NCBI GenBank assembly: GCA_016839945.1
Contig: JAEOTE010000100.1
Coordinates: forward strand, 1-37,610
From: Candidatus Heimdallarchaeota archaeon
GTDB taxonomy: Archaea > Asgardarchaeota > Heimdallarchaeia > Heimdallarchaeales > Heimdallarchaeaceae
Direction of reading: 5' to 3'
DNA: 37,610 nucleotides
The translations under genes and the position numbers were made by a program. Below are positions 24,273 through 29,415 of the stretch, one piece after another (the first letter of the stretch is position 1; each line of letters begins with the position of its first letter). The notes below the pieces were generated by a model that made no database searches, had not been told where the DNA came from, and saw nothing but the letters and a program-made list of their open reading frames with translations.

Positions 24273-24356
24273 AATATGATTGTAGTATGAAATTATATAA
24301 AAGCTTCTATTTTGTTCTTGGGTAAAATTGATAAATAAGTGATTAAATCTCCTTGC

Positions 24357-25649
24357 ATGAAAAAGAAATCAACATATTTTCTTATATTTCTGATTTTAGG
24401 GACTTCTTTCATAAGTTTTAGTAATTTCAATAAAACTGTAATGCCTGCTAAAACAGATGAAGAAGATACATTTCTAAAACCAGAGCTAATTGATAATGGA
24501 TTACTTGCTCCAGAATTCAACATTACTGATGCTGATTCTCTTATTACATACAATTTAACAGATTTCCAAGGAAAAATGGTTGCTATAGATTTTTTTGCTA
24601 CTTGGTGTGTATATTGTATGGATTCTTTACCCTATATACGTCAATTATACTTGATGTATCCTGAAGATATGCTACAAATAATTTCTCTAGATACTGATAC
24701 ATCAGAGTCTAATGCTCAAATTTCCTCTTTTCGAAAAAAATGGGGTATGGATTGGATAGTGGGTAGTGATACATATGGAGTTAATGATGAATATGATATT
24801 TCAGGAATACCTTCTTTCTTCTTAATAAATCAAACTGGACATATAGTATGGAGTGAAGAGGGTTTTGCAGATTCTATGTGGCCTGGTTTTAGAGCAACTT
24901 TTGCTAGTTATTTGCCTGATGATACAGTAGATCCTATAATAACAGACTTTAGTGTAGAAAATAAAACAGAATTTTCAATATTTAATACAGAAATAAATAT
25001 TTTTGCTAATATAACTGAAGATAGGAATGTAAAAACAACTCAATTAAAAATAGAAACAAGTGGTCAAACAGAATTTATAGATCTGCCTTTTAATACAGAA
25101 GGAGATTTCAATATTATAAATGAATCAATAAGTATTGACCCTCTAATAGTATATGGAGAATCGCATATTGATTTAACCGTACAAGCTATTGATTACTTCG
25201 ATAATGTTGGAGTTTCAAGCGTAGAAGCTCTATCAGTAGCTAATTATGTAGATACAGCAGTACCTGAAATAGGAGAAGTAGCAATCATACTTGATGATGA
25301 TGGTTCAAGCAAGTATAATCTAACTGTTGAGGTTGAGGTAACAGAGGATTTACTATTGGTTGAAGCTGCTCTTTTAATACTAAAAGGAACTACACAACTG
25401 AAGTATATATACTTAGAACAGTTTAATTCAACTCATATGATTGCTAGTTGTGAATTGCCAAGATCAATAGCACCTCCAGAAGATATCACTGCAAAGGTCT
25501 TTCTTAGAGATGCTGCAAATAATACAGCTGAAGAAGCATATGACGTTCTTGATATTCCTGAAAATACTGAAAAAACGAGCTTAAATATCCTATATGCACT
25601 TTCTGCATTATTTATCATAATTATGTATTCCAAAAGGAGAAAGAAGTAG
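24357..25649 (+). CDS. Surface-anchored TlpA-like thioredoxin with acidic beta-rich stalk domains
   Basis: Signal peptide; APEFNI, DFFATWCVYC, cis-Pro GIPSFFLIN; two similar beta-rich modules (DTVDPII...AIDYFDNVG; DTAVPEI...LRDAANNTA); TM + KRRKK. Confidence 0.85.
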   Translation: MKKKSTYFLIFLILGTSFISFSNFNKTVMPAKTDEEDTFLKPELIDNGLLAPEFNITDADSLITYNLTDFQGKMVAIDFFATWCVYCMDSLPYIRQLYLMYPEDMLQIISLDTDTSESNAQISSFRKKWGMDWIVGSDTYGVNDEYDISGIPSFFLINQTGHIVWSEEGFADSMWPGFRATFASYLPDDTVDPIITDFSVENKTEFSIFNTEINIFANITEDRNVKTTQLKIETSGQTEFIDLPFNTEGDFNIINESISIDPLIVYGESHIDLTVQAIDYFDNVGVSSVEALSVANYVDTAVPEIGEVAIILDDDGSSKYNLTVEVEVTEDLLLVEAALLILKGTTQLKYIYLEQFNSTHMIASCELPRSIAPPEDITAKVFLRDAANNTAEEAYDVLDIPENTEKTSLNILYALSALFIIIMYSKRRKK

Positions 25650-25721: not shown

Positions 25722-27011
25722 GTGAAGAAAGGACAAATAGCTTTTATCCTAATTTCTATTGTAATAATCGGTGGAGGAATAGGAGTCTATTTCTTAATTC
25801 AATCTTCATCGAAAAAATCTTCTACTGCTCCAAATTATGAATTAGAGAGTATTTCAGGATATAATTTCACCATTTCTTCTCTTGAAAACACGACTGTCAT
25901 ACTTGATTTTATGAGTGTAACTTGCATCCCTTGTAAACAGATGTACCCAATATTAAATGACCTTCAAAATGATGATGATCTTATGGGAAAAATTGAGATA
26001 ATATCCATTGAAACAGACTATACTACAACTATTCCTCAGCTAGAATCATATGCTTTAGATCAGAACATTACTTGGATACTCTGTAAGGCTCCCACAAACA
26101 TGACAGAAGATTATGGTGTTGTAACTCTTCCAACCTTTGTGATAATTAATCCTGAAGGTCTTGTAACATATATTGAAGAAGGAATAATTTCCTTTGACAA
26201 ATTAAAAGATGAGAGTCAAAAAGCAATAGAAGGAATAAGTGAAGGAATACAAATTACAAGTTATCAAGGATTCATAATTGGATTTGCAATTGTAGTTGCA
26301 ATGTCTTCTTTCTTCTCACCCTGTTCTTTCCCTCTTCTTCCAGGATATGTAGCTCACATAATAGGTGTAGATGTAGATGCAAAACAAAAAGAAGAGGAAG
26401 AAGAAGAAAAAGAAACTGATAAAACTTTGAAACAAGCTTTCCTTTATCCACTGCTTGGATTAAGCGGAGGTATCGGAATTTTGATCAGTTATTTAATTTT
26501 AGGTGTTATAGTTAGTTCTGTAGGAAAAGCAATTTTACCTTACTTAGTTTATGCTCTTCCCATAATTGGAGGATTATTCATCATACTTGGAATAGTAATG
26601 TTCACTAATTTCAATATTTCATTTTCAAAACTACTAGGATGGTTAAGAAAAGAACAAATGAAAATCAGTAAAACAGAAAAGAAAGCAACAATCTTTAGAA
26701 AAATATTCAGCACTTTCCTTTATGGTTTAGGCTATGGAATAGCATCTCTCGGATGTAATGGACCAATTTTCCTAGCATTTAGTCTGCAAGTGTCTGGACA
26801 AGAAACAATTGCAAAAATGATTTTTGCTTATCTAGCGTTTTCATTAACAATAATTCTCTTAATGGTAGGAGTAACAATAATACTCATCTTTTCAAGGGAT
26901 GTTATAGTCCAGAAATTAAAAGCTTCTACTGAAGTTATTAAGAAGATAAGTGGAGTAATCATGTTATTAGTAGGAATATATTTAATTCTAGAATTTGCAT
27001 TAGGGGCGTAA
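25722..27011 (+). CDS. TlpA-like thioredoxin fused to CcdA/DsbD transmembrane electron transporter
   Basis: N-terminal anchor; DFMSVTCIPC and TLPTFVIIN; six-TM domain with both conserved cysteines (SFFSPCSFPLLPGY; SLGCNGP) and KKISGVIMLLVGIYL. Confidence 0.9.
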   Translation: MKKGQIAFILISIVIIGGGIGVYFLIQSSSKKSSTAPNYELESISGYNFTISSLENTTVILDFMSVTCIPCKQMYPILNDLQNDDDLMGKIEIISIETDYTTTIPQLESYALDQNITWILCKAPTNMTEDYGVVTLPTFVIINPEGLVTYIEEGIISFDKLKDESQKAIEGISEGIQITSYQGFIIGFAIVVAMSSFFSPCSFPLLPGYVAHIIGVDVDAKQKEEEEEEKETDKTLKQAFLYPLLGLSGGIGILISYLILGVIVSSVGKAILPYLVYALPIIGGLFIILGIVMFTNFNISFSKLLGWLRKEQMKISKTEKKATIFRKIFSTFLYGLGYGIASLGCNGPIFLAFSLQVSGQETIAKMIFAYLAFSLTIILLMVGVTIILIFSRDVIVQKLKASTEVIKKISGVIMLLVGIYLILEFALGA

Positions 27012-27012
27012 A

Positions 27013-27561
27013 ATGATTAGAAAAAATAGAAACGAAATAATTTTCACAACTTTAATGTTATTTTTAGTTTTAACTTTGAATTCAAGAACAATACAAGCAG
27101 AAATAGATTATGGGATTAGCTCTGTCTCTATAGATCCCCAACCTTTGGTTGCTGGAGAAAACATGACAATTGTTGCGAATTTTTATGATACAACTAATGT
27201 AAGTTTAGTTAAATTACTAGTGTGTCAACTAGCTCCCGAATTTAAATGTGAACTAACACCCATTATTATGGAAGAAGAATCATCTTTGAGTTATGAAGGG
27301 AAGTTCTTAGTGTATTATGAGAATGGAGTTTCGGTAGGATTCCATCTTCAGATAGTATATGAAAATGGTTCATCAATATTAATTCCAGATAGAGAAAATT
27401 TCTTAGGTTTTAATACATCAGAACCTGAGACAGATGAGTTCTTTTTCTATGCTGGAATAGTAGGAGATTCAACTGAAAAAACTAAGGGAATTGTAGTAAT
27501 TACATCTGTCTTATCACTGATGGTAATAACGATATGGATTAAAAGAAGAAAGAACCAATAA
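27013..27561 (+). CDS. Secreted, C-terminally anchored beta-rich hypothetical protein with a C-x7-C pair
   Basis: Signal peptide; SIDPQPLVAGENMTIVA (Ig-like start); CQLAPEFKC; TM + KRRK; starts 1 nt after the ccdA stop. Confidence 0.75.
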   Translation: MIRKNRNEIIFTTLMLFLVLTLNSRTIQAEIDYGISSVSIDPQPLVAGENMTIVANFYDTTNVSLVKLLVCQLAPEFKCELTPIIMEEESSLSYEGKFLVYYENGVSVGFHLQIVYENGSSILIPDRENFLGFNTSEPETDEFFFYAGIVGDSTEKTKGIVVITSVLSLMVITIWIKRRKNQ

Positions 27562-27565
27562 TAGT

Positions 27566-27892
27566 TTGATGAATAATGAAATGGTGAATGAAGCTGGGAG
27601 AGGAGAAATCTGTTATTTTTGTAAAACTGATTTGAAGAATGTAGAGAGAAAACAGAAAACAGAACTCAGATGTTGCAAACTAGTTGCTCATAAGAAAGAA
27701 TTATTCCAATGGTTTTTAAAACATCAATATTGTCCTAATTGTCTTGCGGATGATAAGAAAGTAAGACAACAAATACTAGATTGGGGATTGAAGAAAGATA
27801 CTAAAAAGAAGAAATCAATTAAATCTATTGAACACAAGAAATGGAAAAATCAAAGATATGAGAAAAGACTGAGAGATACTAAGAAAGACTGA
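27566..27892 (+). CDS. Small soluble RING-variant protein with very basic tail
   Basis: CYFC-x16-CC-x4-H-x2-E-x3-W-x6-CPNC; Lys/Arg-rich C-terminus. Confidence 0.72.
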   Translation: MMNNEMVNEAGRGEICYFCKTDLKNVERKQKTELRCCKLVAHKKELFQWFLKHQYCPNCLADDKKVRQQILDWGLKKDTKKKKSIKSIEHKKWKNQRYEKRLRDTKKD

Positions 27893-27942: not shown

Positions 27943-28743
27943 GTGACACAGAAGAAATACTTACTAGCTCTCTCATTGATTATTATTCCACTACTTGCTA
28001 TTCCTATTAATGGGAATTATTCAGAGATTTCTGTAGGTTCGGAAAAACAATCAAAGACTTCTATAATTAAACAAACAACTTCTGATTTTACTATCCAAGA
28101 TGTAAATTCAGGTACATCCTATTCTCTTAGTGATTTTTGGGGTAAAGTTGTAGTTCTAGATATGTTTGCAACATGGTGTGGTCCATGCCAAATATCTCTT
28201 CCTTACTTAAGAGAGTTATATTCAGAATATTCAGAAGAAAAAGTTCAGATTATTTCGATTGCTGTTGATCCTTCTGAGAGTCTAGCTACTATCTCTCAAT
28301 TTCGTGATGATGAAAACATGGATTGGATTGTAGGTAAGGATTTAGATGGTTCCATTGCTACTGATTACGGTGTAAGTTCTATTCCAGTTTTCTATGTAAT
28401 AGATCAAAATGGAGAAATAGAATGGAATGATAGTGGTTTTACAGCTGATGGAACATGGCCAGTAATGGAAAGTACAATAAAAAAATTAGTGCGTGATGCT
28501 CAAGAGACACCAATAGTAGCAAGAGTATTTTTAATCATTCTTGAAGTAGGTGCTGGTTTAGGAGCTGCAGCTGGTATCATATTTGTTATATATAAAATAC
28601 GCAAACGATTAGGTGTTAAAAACTGTTTAAACTGCAATGCTGTGGCTAATTCAAAGTGTTCGAAATGTAGTACTTTGATATGTTCAAATTGTTCAGTAAA
28701 TGGTTGCCCAAATTGTGGTAGCACAAAATTTGTAAGATTATGA
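27943..28743 (+). CDS. TlpA-like thioredoxin - TM - 8-Cys zinc finger protein
   Basis: Signal peptide; DMFATWCGPC, SIPVFYVIDQNG; TM then KIRKR; CLNC-x7-CSKC-x4-CSNC-x4-CPNC. Confidence 0.85.
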   Translation: MTQKKYLLALSLIIIPLLAIPINGNYSEISVGSEKQSKTSIIKQTTSDFTIQDVNSGTSYSLSDFWGKVVVLDMFATWCGPCQISLPYLRELYSEYSEEKVQIISIAVDPSESLATISQFRDDENMDWIVGKDLDGSIATDYGVSSIPVFYVIDQNGEIEWNDSGFTADGTWPVMESTIKKLVRDAQETPIVARVFLIILEVGAGLGAAAGIIFVIYKIRKRLGVKNCLNCNAVANSKCSKCSTLICSNCSVNGCPNCGSTKFVRL

Positions 28744-29415
28744 TTTCTTCTTTTCTAATATCTTTTTCATTTTTGTAACACTAACTGCTTTTCCATGAGA
28801 AACAAATACTTCCTTCACTCCTTCTTTTAGAAGACGTTTCCAACTTGAATATATTTGATTTATATCTTCTGCAACTGTGGGTAATCCGGGATTAAATCGT
28901 AAAGGAAAACCATGAGCGCAACATCCAATAAAAGCAACACCATCTTCAGAAACTAACGAAACAGTTCCAAGAGTATGCCCTGGAGTGTGAATAACCTTAG
29001 CTTTAACACCAAATTCATCAAGAGAATATTCATCTTTTATAATTATATCAGGTTCAACAGGATCATATAGCTTTAGAGATTTAGGTATTAGTTTGAAGAG
29101 TAACTTAACTACAAAAGAAATGGGTTTAGGTTCTACGCTTATCCCTTTACGAAGATATTCTGCATCGTTTTCATGAACAAGAACTTTAGCATTAGTGATT
29201 TCCTTTAATGTTTTTAGTCCTCCTACATGATCAAAATGGGCGTGGTTGACAATAATTAATTTGATCTCGCTTGGATCAATGTTGTTTTTCTTTAACAAAC
29301 GAAGATATTTTTTAACATTAGATTTATAACCAGCATCCATCTGAACATAGCCTTTTTCTCCCTTAAGTAATTGGATATTGGTAAAACCTAGATCAAGTTC
29401 AATATGTTTTGCCAT
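28738..29415 (-). CDS. Metallo-beta-lactamase fold hydrolase
   Basis: MDAG, HAHFDH, HTPGHT, final SHG. Confidence 0.88.
   Translation of the reverse strand: MAKHIELDLGFTNIQLLKGEKGYVQMDAGYKSNVKKYLRLLKKNNIDPSEIKLIIVNHAHFDHVGGLKTLKEITNAKVLVHENDAEYLRKGISVEPKPISFVVKLLFKLIPKSLKLYDPVEPDIIIKDEYSLDEFGVKAKVIHTPGHTLGTVSLVSEDGVAFIGCCAHGFPLRFNPGLPTVAEDINQIYSSWKRLLKEGVKEVFVSHGKAVSVTKMKKILEKKKS

Follow-up and report, generated by a model that had tools for sequence, protein, structure and literature searches.

What is a compact eight-cysteine finger doing at what appears to be the cytoplasmic end of an exported thioredoxin? The question is raised by a gene of Candidatus Heimdallarchaeota archaeon (assembly GCA_016839945.1) located at positions 27943-28743 of the forward strand of contig JAEOTE010000100.1, of which positions 1 to 37,610 were analyzed as a single stretch of 37,610 nucleotides, hereinafter the window. 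The original prediction, made from the DNA letters, considered the encoded protein to be receptor-like, with an outside thioredoxin (Trx) domain, a single transmembrane (TM) helix that might allow redox-dependent dimerization and an inside finger possibly resembling RING, B-box or MYND domains, by parallel with eukaryotic ectodomain-TM-RING proteins. Our analysis bears out this architecture but points to a different use of it. The TM helix and the finger constitute a cassette which, in Heimdallarchaeia, is also attached to exported FKBP prolyl isomerases, and we give about an even chance to a reading in which the protein is a membrane-tethered reductase fed by CcdA, with the TM helix and finger serving as a shared assembly or docking cassette for exported folding catalysts. 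The features of the gene are as follows, with the basis of each assignment in parentheses.

27943..28743, + strand: whole gene for the Trx-TM-zinc-finger protein (P0001), 266 aa plus stop (list of open reading frames, translation)
27943..28020, + strand: signal peptide or signal anchor, aa 1-26, with a KK n-region and a hydrophobic core (hydropathy; layout common to all orthologues)
28069..28437, + strand: TlpA/ResA-like thioredoxin-fold domain, predicted extracytoplasmic, aa 43-165 (Pfam)
28174..28188, + strand: active-site motif WCGPC, aa 78-82 (read from sequence)
28525..28593, + strand: single TM helix V195-Y217, with E201 and the small-xxx-small run G203-G211 (hydropathy maximum 2.28; helix 191-222 in an AlphaFold2 (AF2) model)
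28543..28545, + strand: codon of the intramembrane Glu201 (orthologue alignment)
28594..28623, + strand: basic juxtamembrane segment K218-N227 (KIRKRLGVKN), positive-inside (charge statistics)
28624..28716, + strand: eight-Cys finger C228-C258 with four CxxC, predicted two-zinc cross-brace, B-box/RING-like (spacing, AF2, fold matches)
28717..28740, + strand: C-terminal tail GSTKFVRL, predicted terminal β-strand (alignment; AF2 strand at model residues 50-52)

Domain architecture, topology and conservation

The gene starts with a GTG codon, and all elements listed in the original prediction (signal, WCGPC thioredoxin, TM helix with Glu and GxxxG, KIRKR and the spacing of the 8 cysteines) are present in this single open reading frame. 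Hydropathy analysis revealed 2 hydrophobic segments in the 266-aa protein, at aa ~4-26 and ~189-217. The N-terminus reads MTQKK followed by a hydrophobic stretch (Kyte-Doolittle 19-residue windows >1.6 at starts 4-8), which may be either a signal peptide or an uncleaved anchor. The charges around the second segment are distributed asymmetrically: averaged over 55 family members, the 15-residue stretch that follows the TM helix contains 4.5 K+R and 0.05 D+E, compared with 1.4 and 1.85, respectively, in the 15 residues before it. The 53 cytosolic residues of the cassette contain 11 K+R versus 0.2 D+E. Because of this positive-inside bias and the N-terminal signal or anchor, the Trx domain is predicted to be located outside the cell and the Cys-rich tail to face the cytoplasm, which is where one would expect a Zn(Cys)4 domain. 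The proposed topology of an outside Trx domain, one TM helix and an inside finger is thus corroborated, and an extracellular tail, which would have counted against the original prediction, is not what the rule predicts. An archaeosortase-type C-terminal sorting signal was also considered and rejected, because a conserved 50-aa folded domain comes after the TM helix.

The outside domain (aa 43-165) matches 4 Pfam families above their gathering scores, namely, AhpC-TSA (78.4 bits, cut-off 26, E 5.9e-22), Redoxin (74.3 bits, cut-off 26.6, E 1.1e-20), Thioredoxin_8 (52.7 bits, cut-off 27, E 5.4e-14) and Thioredoxin. Its best PDB relatives by sequence are ResA and DsbE, and the CxxC active site, in the form of WCGPC, is that expected of TlpA/ResA-like proteins at the N-terminus of helix 1. 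The scores against the named NCBIfam models are below the cut-offs (ResA subfamily, 91.6 bits versus 170; DsbE, 53.9 versus 123; TlpA, 47.9 versus 230). Membership in the TMX/PDI group finds no support: the NCBIfam ER_PDI_fam and pdi_dom models score 15.9 bits versus 344 and 21 versus 107, respectively, and no TMX or PDI chain is found among the PDB matches at E ≤ 1e-8. The protein thus shares with bacterial TlpA/ResA/DsbE (CcmG), which operate with CcdA/DsbD, the thioredoxin-fold subfamily, the CxxC motif, the membrane-tethered, outward-facing disposition and an adjacent CcdA-type gene. Unlike its bacterial counterparts, which have an N-terminal helix or a lipid anchor and no cytoplasmic domain, the Heimdall protein, from an archaeal host and short of the NCBIfam cut-offs, adds a C-terminal TM helix and a 50-aa predicted zinc finger.

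This addition is a stable trait of the family. A search with residues 170-266 retrieved 7 proteins (52-92% identity, 257-270 aa), each of which has both the Trx Pfam domains and the tail; full-length matches among genome contigs were limited to 8 records labeled Heimdallarchaeota or 'uncultured archaeon' and 1 distant match at 30% identity. The first 8 aligned sequences (52-92% identity) show no variation in the 8 cysteines, E201, G205-L206, K226, G254, G259 or the terminal F-x-R-L. In the complete orthologue set (n = 13, 51-92% identity), invariance extends to W78, C79, P81 and C82 of the WCGPC motif, to I199, E201, V202, G205 and Y217 in the TM helix (with A209 nearly invariant), to K218 and K226 in the basic juxtamembrane segment and to G259, F263, R265 and L266 in the C-terminal tail, where S260 and K262 are invariant only in the first 8 sequences. 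C250 and L206 drop to nearly invariant, with P0009, a Trx-type representative, carrying His at C250, the sixth ligand position. The spacing of the cysteines, C-x2-C-x7-C-x2-C-x4-C-x2-C-x4-C-x2-C (C228, 231, 239, 242, 247, 250, 255 and 258) followed by an 8-residue tail, is identical in 55/55 proteins of the window's own family (f1), and the length of the C-terminal tail is 8-13 residues in all 118 members of the cassette family. Conservation of the eight-Cys tail, which is kept in all orthologues, is far beyond chance, and its absence from orthologues, another circumstance under which the original prediction would have been abandoned, was not observed.

Outside this family, the combination is uncommon. 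A HMMER search against 1.84 billion representatives yielded 94,563 Trx-like matches (E ≤ 0.001), and the tail was found in 3 of the best 150 (1 full-length and 2 fragments), which makes the Trx-TM-finger architecture rare among TlpA-like proteins and is consistent with the assertion that TlpA proteins normally have no cytoplasmic domain. A TlpA-like enzyme with a B-box-like finger is an architecture restricted to Heimdallarchaeia, for which our literature searches found no description, although this is not a proof of its absence from the literature.

A transmembrane-finger cassette shared with FKBP proteins

Searching the genome to which the window belongs (3.0 Mb, 186 contigs, 88% complete) with the TM helix and tail revealed 3 tandem paralogues on contig C154 (L007:5264-7226, - strand), each consisting of a signal peptide, an FKBP-like ectodomain (a borderline match to Pfam FKBP_C in this genus), a TM helix and the same finger. 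With a profile of the cassette, 53 proteins were retrieved, and with a wider profile 84, all of them 175-290 aa long and with a Trx or FKBP ectodomain; the names of their sources include Heimdallarchaeota, Heimdallarchaeaceae, Kariarchaeaceae and Hodarchaeales. No third type of ectodomain was found on the cassette among these 84+53 proteins or in 300 Asgard genomes. In the more distant copies, the ectodomain is clearly an FKBP (FKBP_C up to 63.7 bits, above the gathering score) and the finger is a variant one. The Heimdallarchaeia FKBP-TM-finger proteins thus resemble the Trx-TM-finger proteins in having a homologous TM helix and finger (34-51% identity over the module), an identical Cys spacing within the family and the same host genomes, but differ in the ectodomain and in being present in 3 lineages, whereas the Trx form appears limited, in our searches, to the window's own family.

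In the 300 sampled Asgard genomes, the finger profile matched 27/28 genomes of family f1, 9/11 (f2) and 1/1 genomes of 2 sister families and, in a further family belonging to the class (f5), 8/21; the 2 largest other families yielded 1/76 and 2/68 matches, with marginal E-values, and almost nothing was found elsewhere. In a maximum likelihood tree of 118 cassettes (82 columns), which is weakly resolved, 12 Trx and 9 FKBP-a cassettes form one clade (Shimodaira-Hasegawa-like approximate likelihood ratio test (SH-aLRT) support 96), with the window's subgroup being sister to FKBP-a (SH-aLRT 97), and the tree requires at least 2 changes of ectodomain. We infer that the FKBP form may be the older one, with the Trx form being a graft at the level of a single family. 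Several positions of the finger other than the metal ligands are conserved across families, including A235, the K/S preceding the fourth cysteine (C4), G254, P256 and the terminal F-x-R-L/F strand.

These observations bear directly on what the cassette is for. Because the same TM helix and finger are found on FKBP ectodomains, the role of the cassette does not appear to be redox-specific, and the receptor, ubiquitin ligase or redox-signaling reading of the protein is weakened, given that FKBP ectodomains carry the cassette across the class.

The variant fingers deserve a separate description. The Kariarchaeaceae-like FKBP copies carry a conserved His inside the first knuckle (CxHC) and have a 12-residue first loop, and the Hodarchaeales-like copies follow the pattern C-x2-C-x7-C-x4-C-x4-C-x2-C-x6-C-x2-C-H, with an extra His after the last Cys. 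The FKBP paralogues of the window genome have the gene for a Rab-like GTPase (L007:7546-8151) on one side and that for an RNase E/G-like protein on the other, an order kept family-wide (L107-L114) but not in other families, and hence representing plain family-level synteny.

The TM helix of the cassette has 2 peculiarities. First, it contains a run of small residues (G203/G205/G207/A209/G211), and every f1 copy retains the small-xxx-small pattern. The 8 aligned f1 modules all have G205-L206; some members of the wider f1 set have G-I, and the distant families lack the motif. The conservation of the pattern makes GxxxG-mediated dimerization of the helix plausible, as is helix-helix packing via the small residues. 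Second, a charged residue is located 4 positions before G-L. The Trx type has Glu at this site, except for Lys in L014; FKBP-c has Arg, and FKBP-a varies between Glu, Lys and Ala (L109-L113 examined). Because Glu, Lys and Arg alternate at the equivalent position across copies, the intramembrane charge seems to be kept but its sign is not, an unexplained feature. Pairing of Glu201 with the Arg of FKBP-c within the membrane was considered and dropped, since the residues are Lys, Lys and Arg in one genome (G003) and FKBP-a carries Glu or Lys in other genera, so that charge complementarity is not general.

Predicted fold of the finger

To what class of domains the finger belongs was addressed by structure modeling, structure comparison and profile searches. 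An AF2 model of the finger (m0464a2d4d328), built without zinc from an alignment of the juxtamembrane segment and finger of 55 sequences, has a predicted local distance difference test (pLDDT) score of 72.7 and consists of a helix, a short β-hairpin, one helical turn and a terminal strand. In the Foldseek comparison with the PDB, the top matches were RING domains of IDOL, cIAP2, BIRC7, XIAP, Bre1 and c-Cbl (probability 0.9-0.98, E 0.035-1), and B-box1 of PML was aligned with a root-mean-square deviation of 0.9 Å over 27 columns. An exhaustive alignment with VIA (best Z 4.8) placed at the top mostly U-box/RING, B-box (COL2, MID1, TRIM29, TRIM28, PML) and ZZ (Ada2, p62) domains; COL2 and MID1 scored Z 4.4 and 4.0, respectively, a small zinc-binding ribosomal protein (9fhl_a) Z 4.7 and yeast Hit1 Z 3.1. 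A shape search of the ESM Atlas yielded as the best match a cluster of ANCHR-like B-box/zf-B_box domains (TM-score 0.66), followed by RING and plant BBX clusters.

Sequence-based searches point in the same direction. The tail on its own matches, below the gathering scores, the Pfam families zf-B_box (PF00643; 19.0 bits versus 24.1, E 0.0016) and ANCHR-like_BBOX (PF22586; 16.4 bits versus 27, E 0.01), and sub-threshold B-box matches recur in relatives, reaching 19.4 bits. A search of the PDB sequences with the finger profile returned nothing significant, the best matches being the BIRC7 RING (E 0.1), followed by Cuz1 AN1, PML B1 and the ZFYVE19 B-box, and a feature search of the ESM Atlas with the tail was uninformative (best score 0.76). 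Because these independent rankings agree, although no single score is significant and each statistic is weak, the finger is predicted with moderate confidence to be a cross-brace of the RING/B-box/ZZ class, and is inferred to hold 2 zinc ions in that geometry.

Within this class, the ligand spacing appears closest to that of type 1 B-boxes. The first 6 ligands fit the B-box pattern C-x2-C-x7-10-C-x2-C-x4-5-C-x2-[CH]-x3-6-H-x2-8-H; the exception is the last pair, a close C-x2-C that comes after 4 residues and replaces the 2 His. The finger thus shares with the B-boxes of PML/TRIM19 (B-box1), MID1 and plant COL2/BBX the succession C-x2-C-x7-C-x2-C-x4-C-x2-C, as well as the structural and sub-threshold Pfam matches, but differs in the last pair (H...H in B-boxes) and in its context, being the C-terminus of an archaeal membrane protein devoid of RING or coiled-coil partner domains.

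Membership in the RING family proper, by contrast, is contradicted by several features. The RING spacing C-x2-C-x9-39-C-x1-3-H-x2-3-[CH]-x2-C-x4-48-C-x2-C does not describe the finger, in which the first loop has 7 residues, C-x2-C stands in place of C-x-H (there is no His) and 4, rather than 2-3, residues separate ligands 4 and 5; no Pfam RING family matches the tail at E ≤ 10. In the Trx-type fingers (n = 12), the position that contacts the E2 enzyme in RINGs (2 residues after the first ligand, C1+2) is polar, Ser or Asn, in 9/12 and the linchpin position (C8+1) is Gly in 12/12; Pro is present at C7+1 in 11/12, and the C6-C7 loop of just 4 residues leaves no room for the central helix with its Trp/Leu. 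The FKBP-type fingers are somewhat more RING-like, with Val/Ile at C1+2 in 38/106 and Lys at C8+1 in 59/106. The best RING matches (IDOL, cIAP2, BIRC7, XIAP, Bre1) are dimeric RINGs, which we take to have a flanking helix and a C-terminal tail, elements that are also present in the model. Dimeric C-terminal RINGs (IDOL, cIAP1/2, XIAP, BIRC7, MDM2) and the finger as modeled share the flanking helix, the cross-brace core and the short tail at the protein end, and eukaryotic ectodomain-TM-RING E3s of the PA-TM-RING family have the same order of ectodomain, TM helix and finger. RING systems differ, however, in the spacing and identity of the ligands, in the central helix and Pfam RING match, both missing here, and in the E2-contact and linchpin residues, missing from the Trx type.

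The MYND-like option put forward in the original prediction can be set aside: zf-HIT matches with E 2.9, zf-MYND is absent at E ≤ 10 and the last pair is C-x2-C, not H-x3-C. As for the double zinc ribbon, the DZR family (PF12773) matches the tail with E 1.4 (9.6 bits versus 27.3), the top fold matches are cross-brace and the 4-residue gaps between the knuckles would be short for zinc ribbons; the zinc-binding ribosomal protein with Z 4.7 is among the VIA matches as well. The suggestion that the finger is a compact B-box/RING-like cross-brace rather than a double ribbon is thus favored, with weak statistics, by AF2, Foldseek, VIA, the ESM Atlas and sub-threshold Pfam matches.

Gene neighborhood

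The gene for the Trx-TM-finger protein ends a co-oriented run formed by genes for a TlpA-like protein (24339), a Trx-CcdA fusion (25722), a protein with a signal peptide (SP) and a TM helix (27013), a RING-H2-like protein (27566) and the Trx-TM-finger protein itself (27943):

24339..25649, + strand: further TlpA/ResA-like anchored protein, 436 aa (NCBIfam ResA subfamily E 4.4e-21; synteny kept in L011, L015 and L103)
25722..27011, + strand: Trx-CcdA/DsbD-type fusion, 429 aa, probable electron supplier (Pfam/NCBIfam Trx matches and a polytopic C-terminal half)
27013..27561, + strand: signal-peptide and C-terminal-TM protein, 182 aa (1-2 syntenic copies in L011, L013, L015 and L103)
27566..27892, + strand: soluble RING-H2-like protein, 108 aa, 50 nt upstream of the Trx-finger gene (Pfam zf-RING_2 E 0.016)

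Located 0.9 kb upstream of the Trx-finger gene, the Trx-CcdA fusion comprises an N-terminally anchored Trx domain, a Glu-rich linker and a polytopic domain and is 59-62% identical in L011, L013, L015 and L103; its C-terminal half matches weakly a membrane-permease family, and the CcdA label comes from reading the sequence, not from a CcdA-family match. The 182-aa SP/TM protein has no Pfam or NCBIfam match. The 108-aa protein contains a CxxC...CC-x3-H...CPxC finger and a Lys/Arg-rich tail, and its best PDB sequence matches are the RINGs of RNF24, synoviolin/Hrd1, RNF38 and Arkadia (E 0.07-1).

Conservation of the neighbors was assessed by tblastn of the proteins of this run against 16 orthologue loci, within 6 kb (L015 and L104 being the same locus). 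The block of TlpA, Trx-CcdA and SP/TM genes is present upstream of the orthologue in L011, L013, L015 (= L104) and L103. The cluster includes the RING-like gene in L011 (directly upstream), L013 (~1.8 kb) and L103 (~5 kb) but not in L015/L104, and the genome of the window encodes 4 UQ_con and 2 ubiquitin-family matches; linkage to the RING-like gene lends modest support to a functional tie. None of these neighbors was found within 6 kb in the other approximately 6 distinct orthologue loci.

Proposed role and alternative explanations

Bacterial TlpA and ResA work in CcdA-dependent pathways. By analogy with them, and because the TlpA/Trx-CcdA/SP-TM block lies upstream in orthologue loci, the outside Trx domain may act as a reductase fed by the neighboring Trx-CcdA conduit. 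The TM helix and finger would stand apart from this redox chemistry, as a portable cassette also carried by exported FKBP prolyl isomerases, in which small-xxx-small packing of the helix, together with self-association of the finger or its binding to a cytoplasmic partner, would bring membrane-tethered folding catalysts together or position them. Being very basic, the finger would suit an acidic partner, such as the surface of the ribosome or translocon (ribosomal RNA) or the membrane with its anionic lipids. We favor such assembly or docking over signaling because the cassette serves 2 chemically unrelated folding catalysts, because surface positions other than the ligands and the terminal strand are conserved, because the closest fold classes are interaction and oligomerization modules (B-boxes are known for protein-protein interactions and oligomerization, and the matched RINGs are dimeric) and because the charge bias of the cytosolic residues suits an acidic partner.

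Several observations weigh against this reading. The fold rests on one moderate-confidence AF2 model, with no structural score reaching conventional significance (E ≥ 0.035, Z < 5); the full-length AF2 model, built with 13 orthologues, has a pLDDT of 49.7, with the finger below 50, and was used for secondary structure alone. Whether the metal is Zn or Fe is not readable from the sequence. The sixth ligand is Ser or Asp in one family (the Kariarchaeaceae-like FKBP copies L088, L091, L092 and L095), the CcdA linkage is found in only about 4/10 orthologue loci, and the gene neighborhoods contain no conserved cytoplasmic partner, nor was a partner of the finger identified.

The alternative that survives best, although we consider it unlikely, is that the finger is a structural plug or retention tail, that is, a stable basic knob that fixes the topology and keeps the anchor from being released or degraded, without any specific partner, possibly with iron as the metal, as in the rubredoxin-like CPxCG knuckle. 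Its extreme basicity, its position directly after the TM helix and the lack of a partner are all compatible with such a knob, as are the CPNCG knuckle, which resembles those of rubredoxins and zinc ribbons, and the zinc-binding ribosomal protein among the VIA matches. However, conservation of the non-ligand positions across families exceeds what structure alone would need, and because A235, the K/S before C4, G254, P256 and F-x-R-L/F are conserved across families, a specific interaction surface is the better explanation.

Less probable still is a transmembrane redox sensor or receptor, in which oxidation of the outside WCGPC would alter TM packing through GxxxG and Glu201 and thereby trigger dimerization of or signaling by the finger, or in which the finger itself would be a redox switch similar to Hsp33 and ZAS anti-sigma factors. 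Zn(Cys)4 sites are known redox switches, and this possibility is in line with both the conservation of the small-xxx-small motif and of a charged intramembrane residue and the linkage to a CcdA redox cluster. It does not explain why the cassette is also found on FKBP ectodomains, which lack redox chemistry, in 3 Heimdallarchaeia lineages, where it looks ancestral, nor why the sign of the TM charge varies (Lys in L014; Arg, Lys and Ala in paralogues), and no downstream signaling gene is conserved nearby.

Finally, the protein might be a membrane-anchored ubiquitin E3 or the inactive partner in a hetero-RING pair. Its finger would then recruit an E2, possibly together with the upstream RING-H2-like protein, so that ubiquitylation at the membrane would respond to the state of the exported folding or redox domain, as in eukaryotic ectodomain-TM-RING proteins. 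This alternative is the least probable of the three, because the RING E3 domains among the top fold matches, the Pro at C7+1, the frequent Val/Ile at C1+2 and Lys at C8+1 in FKBP-type copies, the ubiquitin-related genes of the genome and the adjoining RING-H2-like gene, found in the same cluster in 3 other loci of metagenome-assembled genomes, are outweighed by the lack of a Pfam RING match, the B-box-like C-x2-C at ligands 3/4 and x4 before ligand 5 (not C-x-H-x2-3-C), the 4 residues between ligands 6 and 7, which accommodate neither a full central helix nor the Trp/Leu contact, the Ser/Asn and Gly at the E2-contact and linchpin positions of the Trx type and the lack of a RING-H2 neighbor in most orthologue loci. 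There is no positive evidence for ubiquitin-ligase activity, and the sequence does not favor an E3 role.

Relation to eukaryotic membrane-tethered foldases

Heimdallarchaeia are usually placed nearest to the eukaryotic stem among archaea. In this class, a class-specific TM-finger cassette has been grafted onto 2 classic activities of the secretory pathway, thiol-disulfide exchange and prolyl isomerization, and the resulting topology equals that of TMX1 and FKBP11, residents of the endoplasmic reticulum (ER). FKBP11, a transmembrane FKBP, binds to secretory translocons associated with ribosomes (PMC12804085), and TMX1, a lumenal Trx reductase of 280 aa with type I topology and a cytosolic tail, associates with calnexin via TM anchors (PMC7563315). 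The 2 human proteins share the topology and the pair of folding activities with the 2 Heimdall architectures, but there is no detectable orthology, the Trx domain of the archaeal protein is TlpA/ResA-like rather than PDI-like, and the eukaryotic tails carry no zinc finger; the likeness is thus an analogy only.

If the finger docks the enzymes to the translocon or ribosome, to each other or to the ubiquitin machinery, tethered folding stations with cytosolic adaptors would predate the ER, and cross-brace fingers would extend to a new prokaryotic context. A stronger version, which we regard as quite improbable, is that the finger is a RING/B-box-type partner of the RING-H2-like protein or of E2s, with which it would form a platform for ubiquitylation or docking, anchored in the membrane, that positions exported folding catalysts or reports on them; were this so, the platform would be an archaeal forerunner of both eukaryotic ectodomain-TM-RING proteins and translocon-associated foldases such as TMX1 and FKBP11, in the class closest to eukaryotes. 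On a conservative reading, the locus is a clean and testable case of domain-cassette shuffling between exported enzymes.

Other features of the locus

One orthologue locus (L008) has no neighbors in common with the window. Just upstream of the orthologue, at L008:4853-5834 (- strand), it contains 2 tandem genes, the ~150-aa products of which have a CxxC...CxxC zinc ribbon at the N-terminus, then TM segments and a basic C-terminal end. In the window, the last 6 bases of the Trx-finger gene, including the stop codon (28738-28743), overlap the 3′ end of a convergent gene for a metallo-beta-lactamase-fold protein (28738-29415, - strand).

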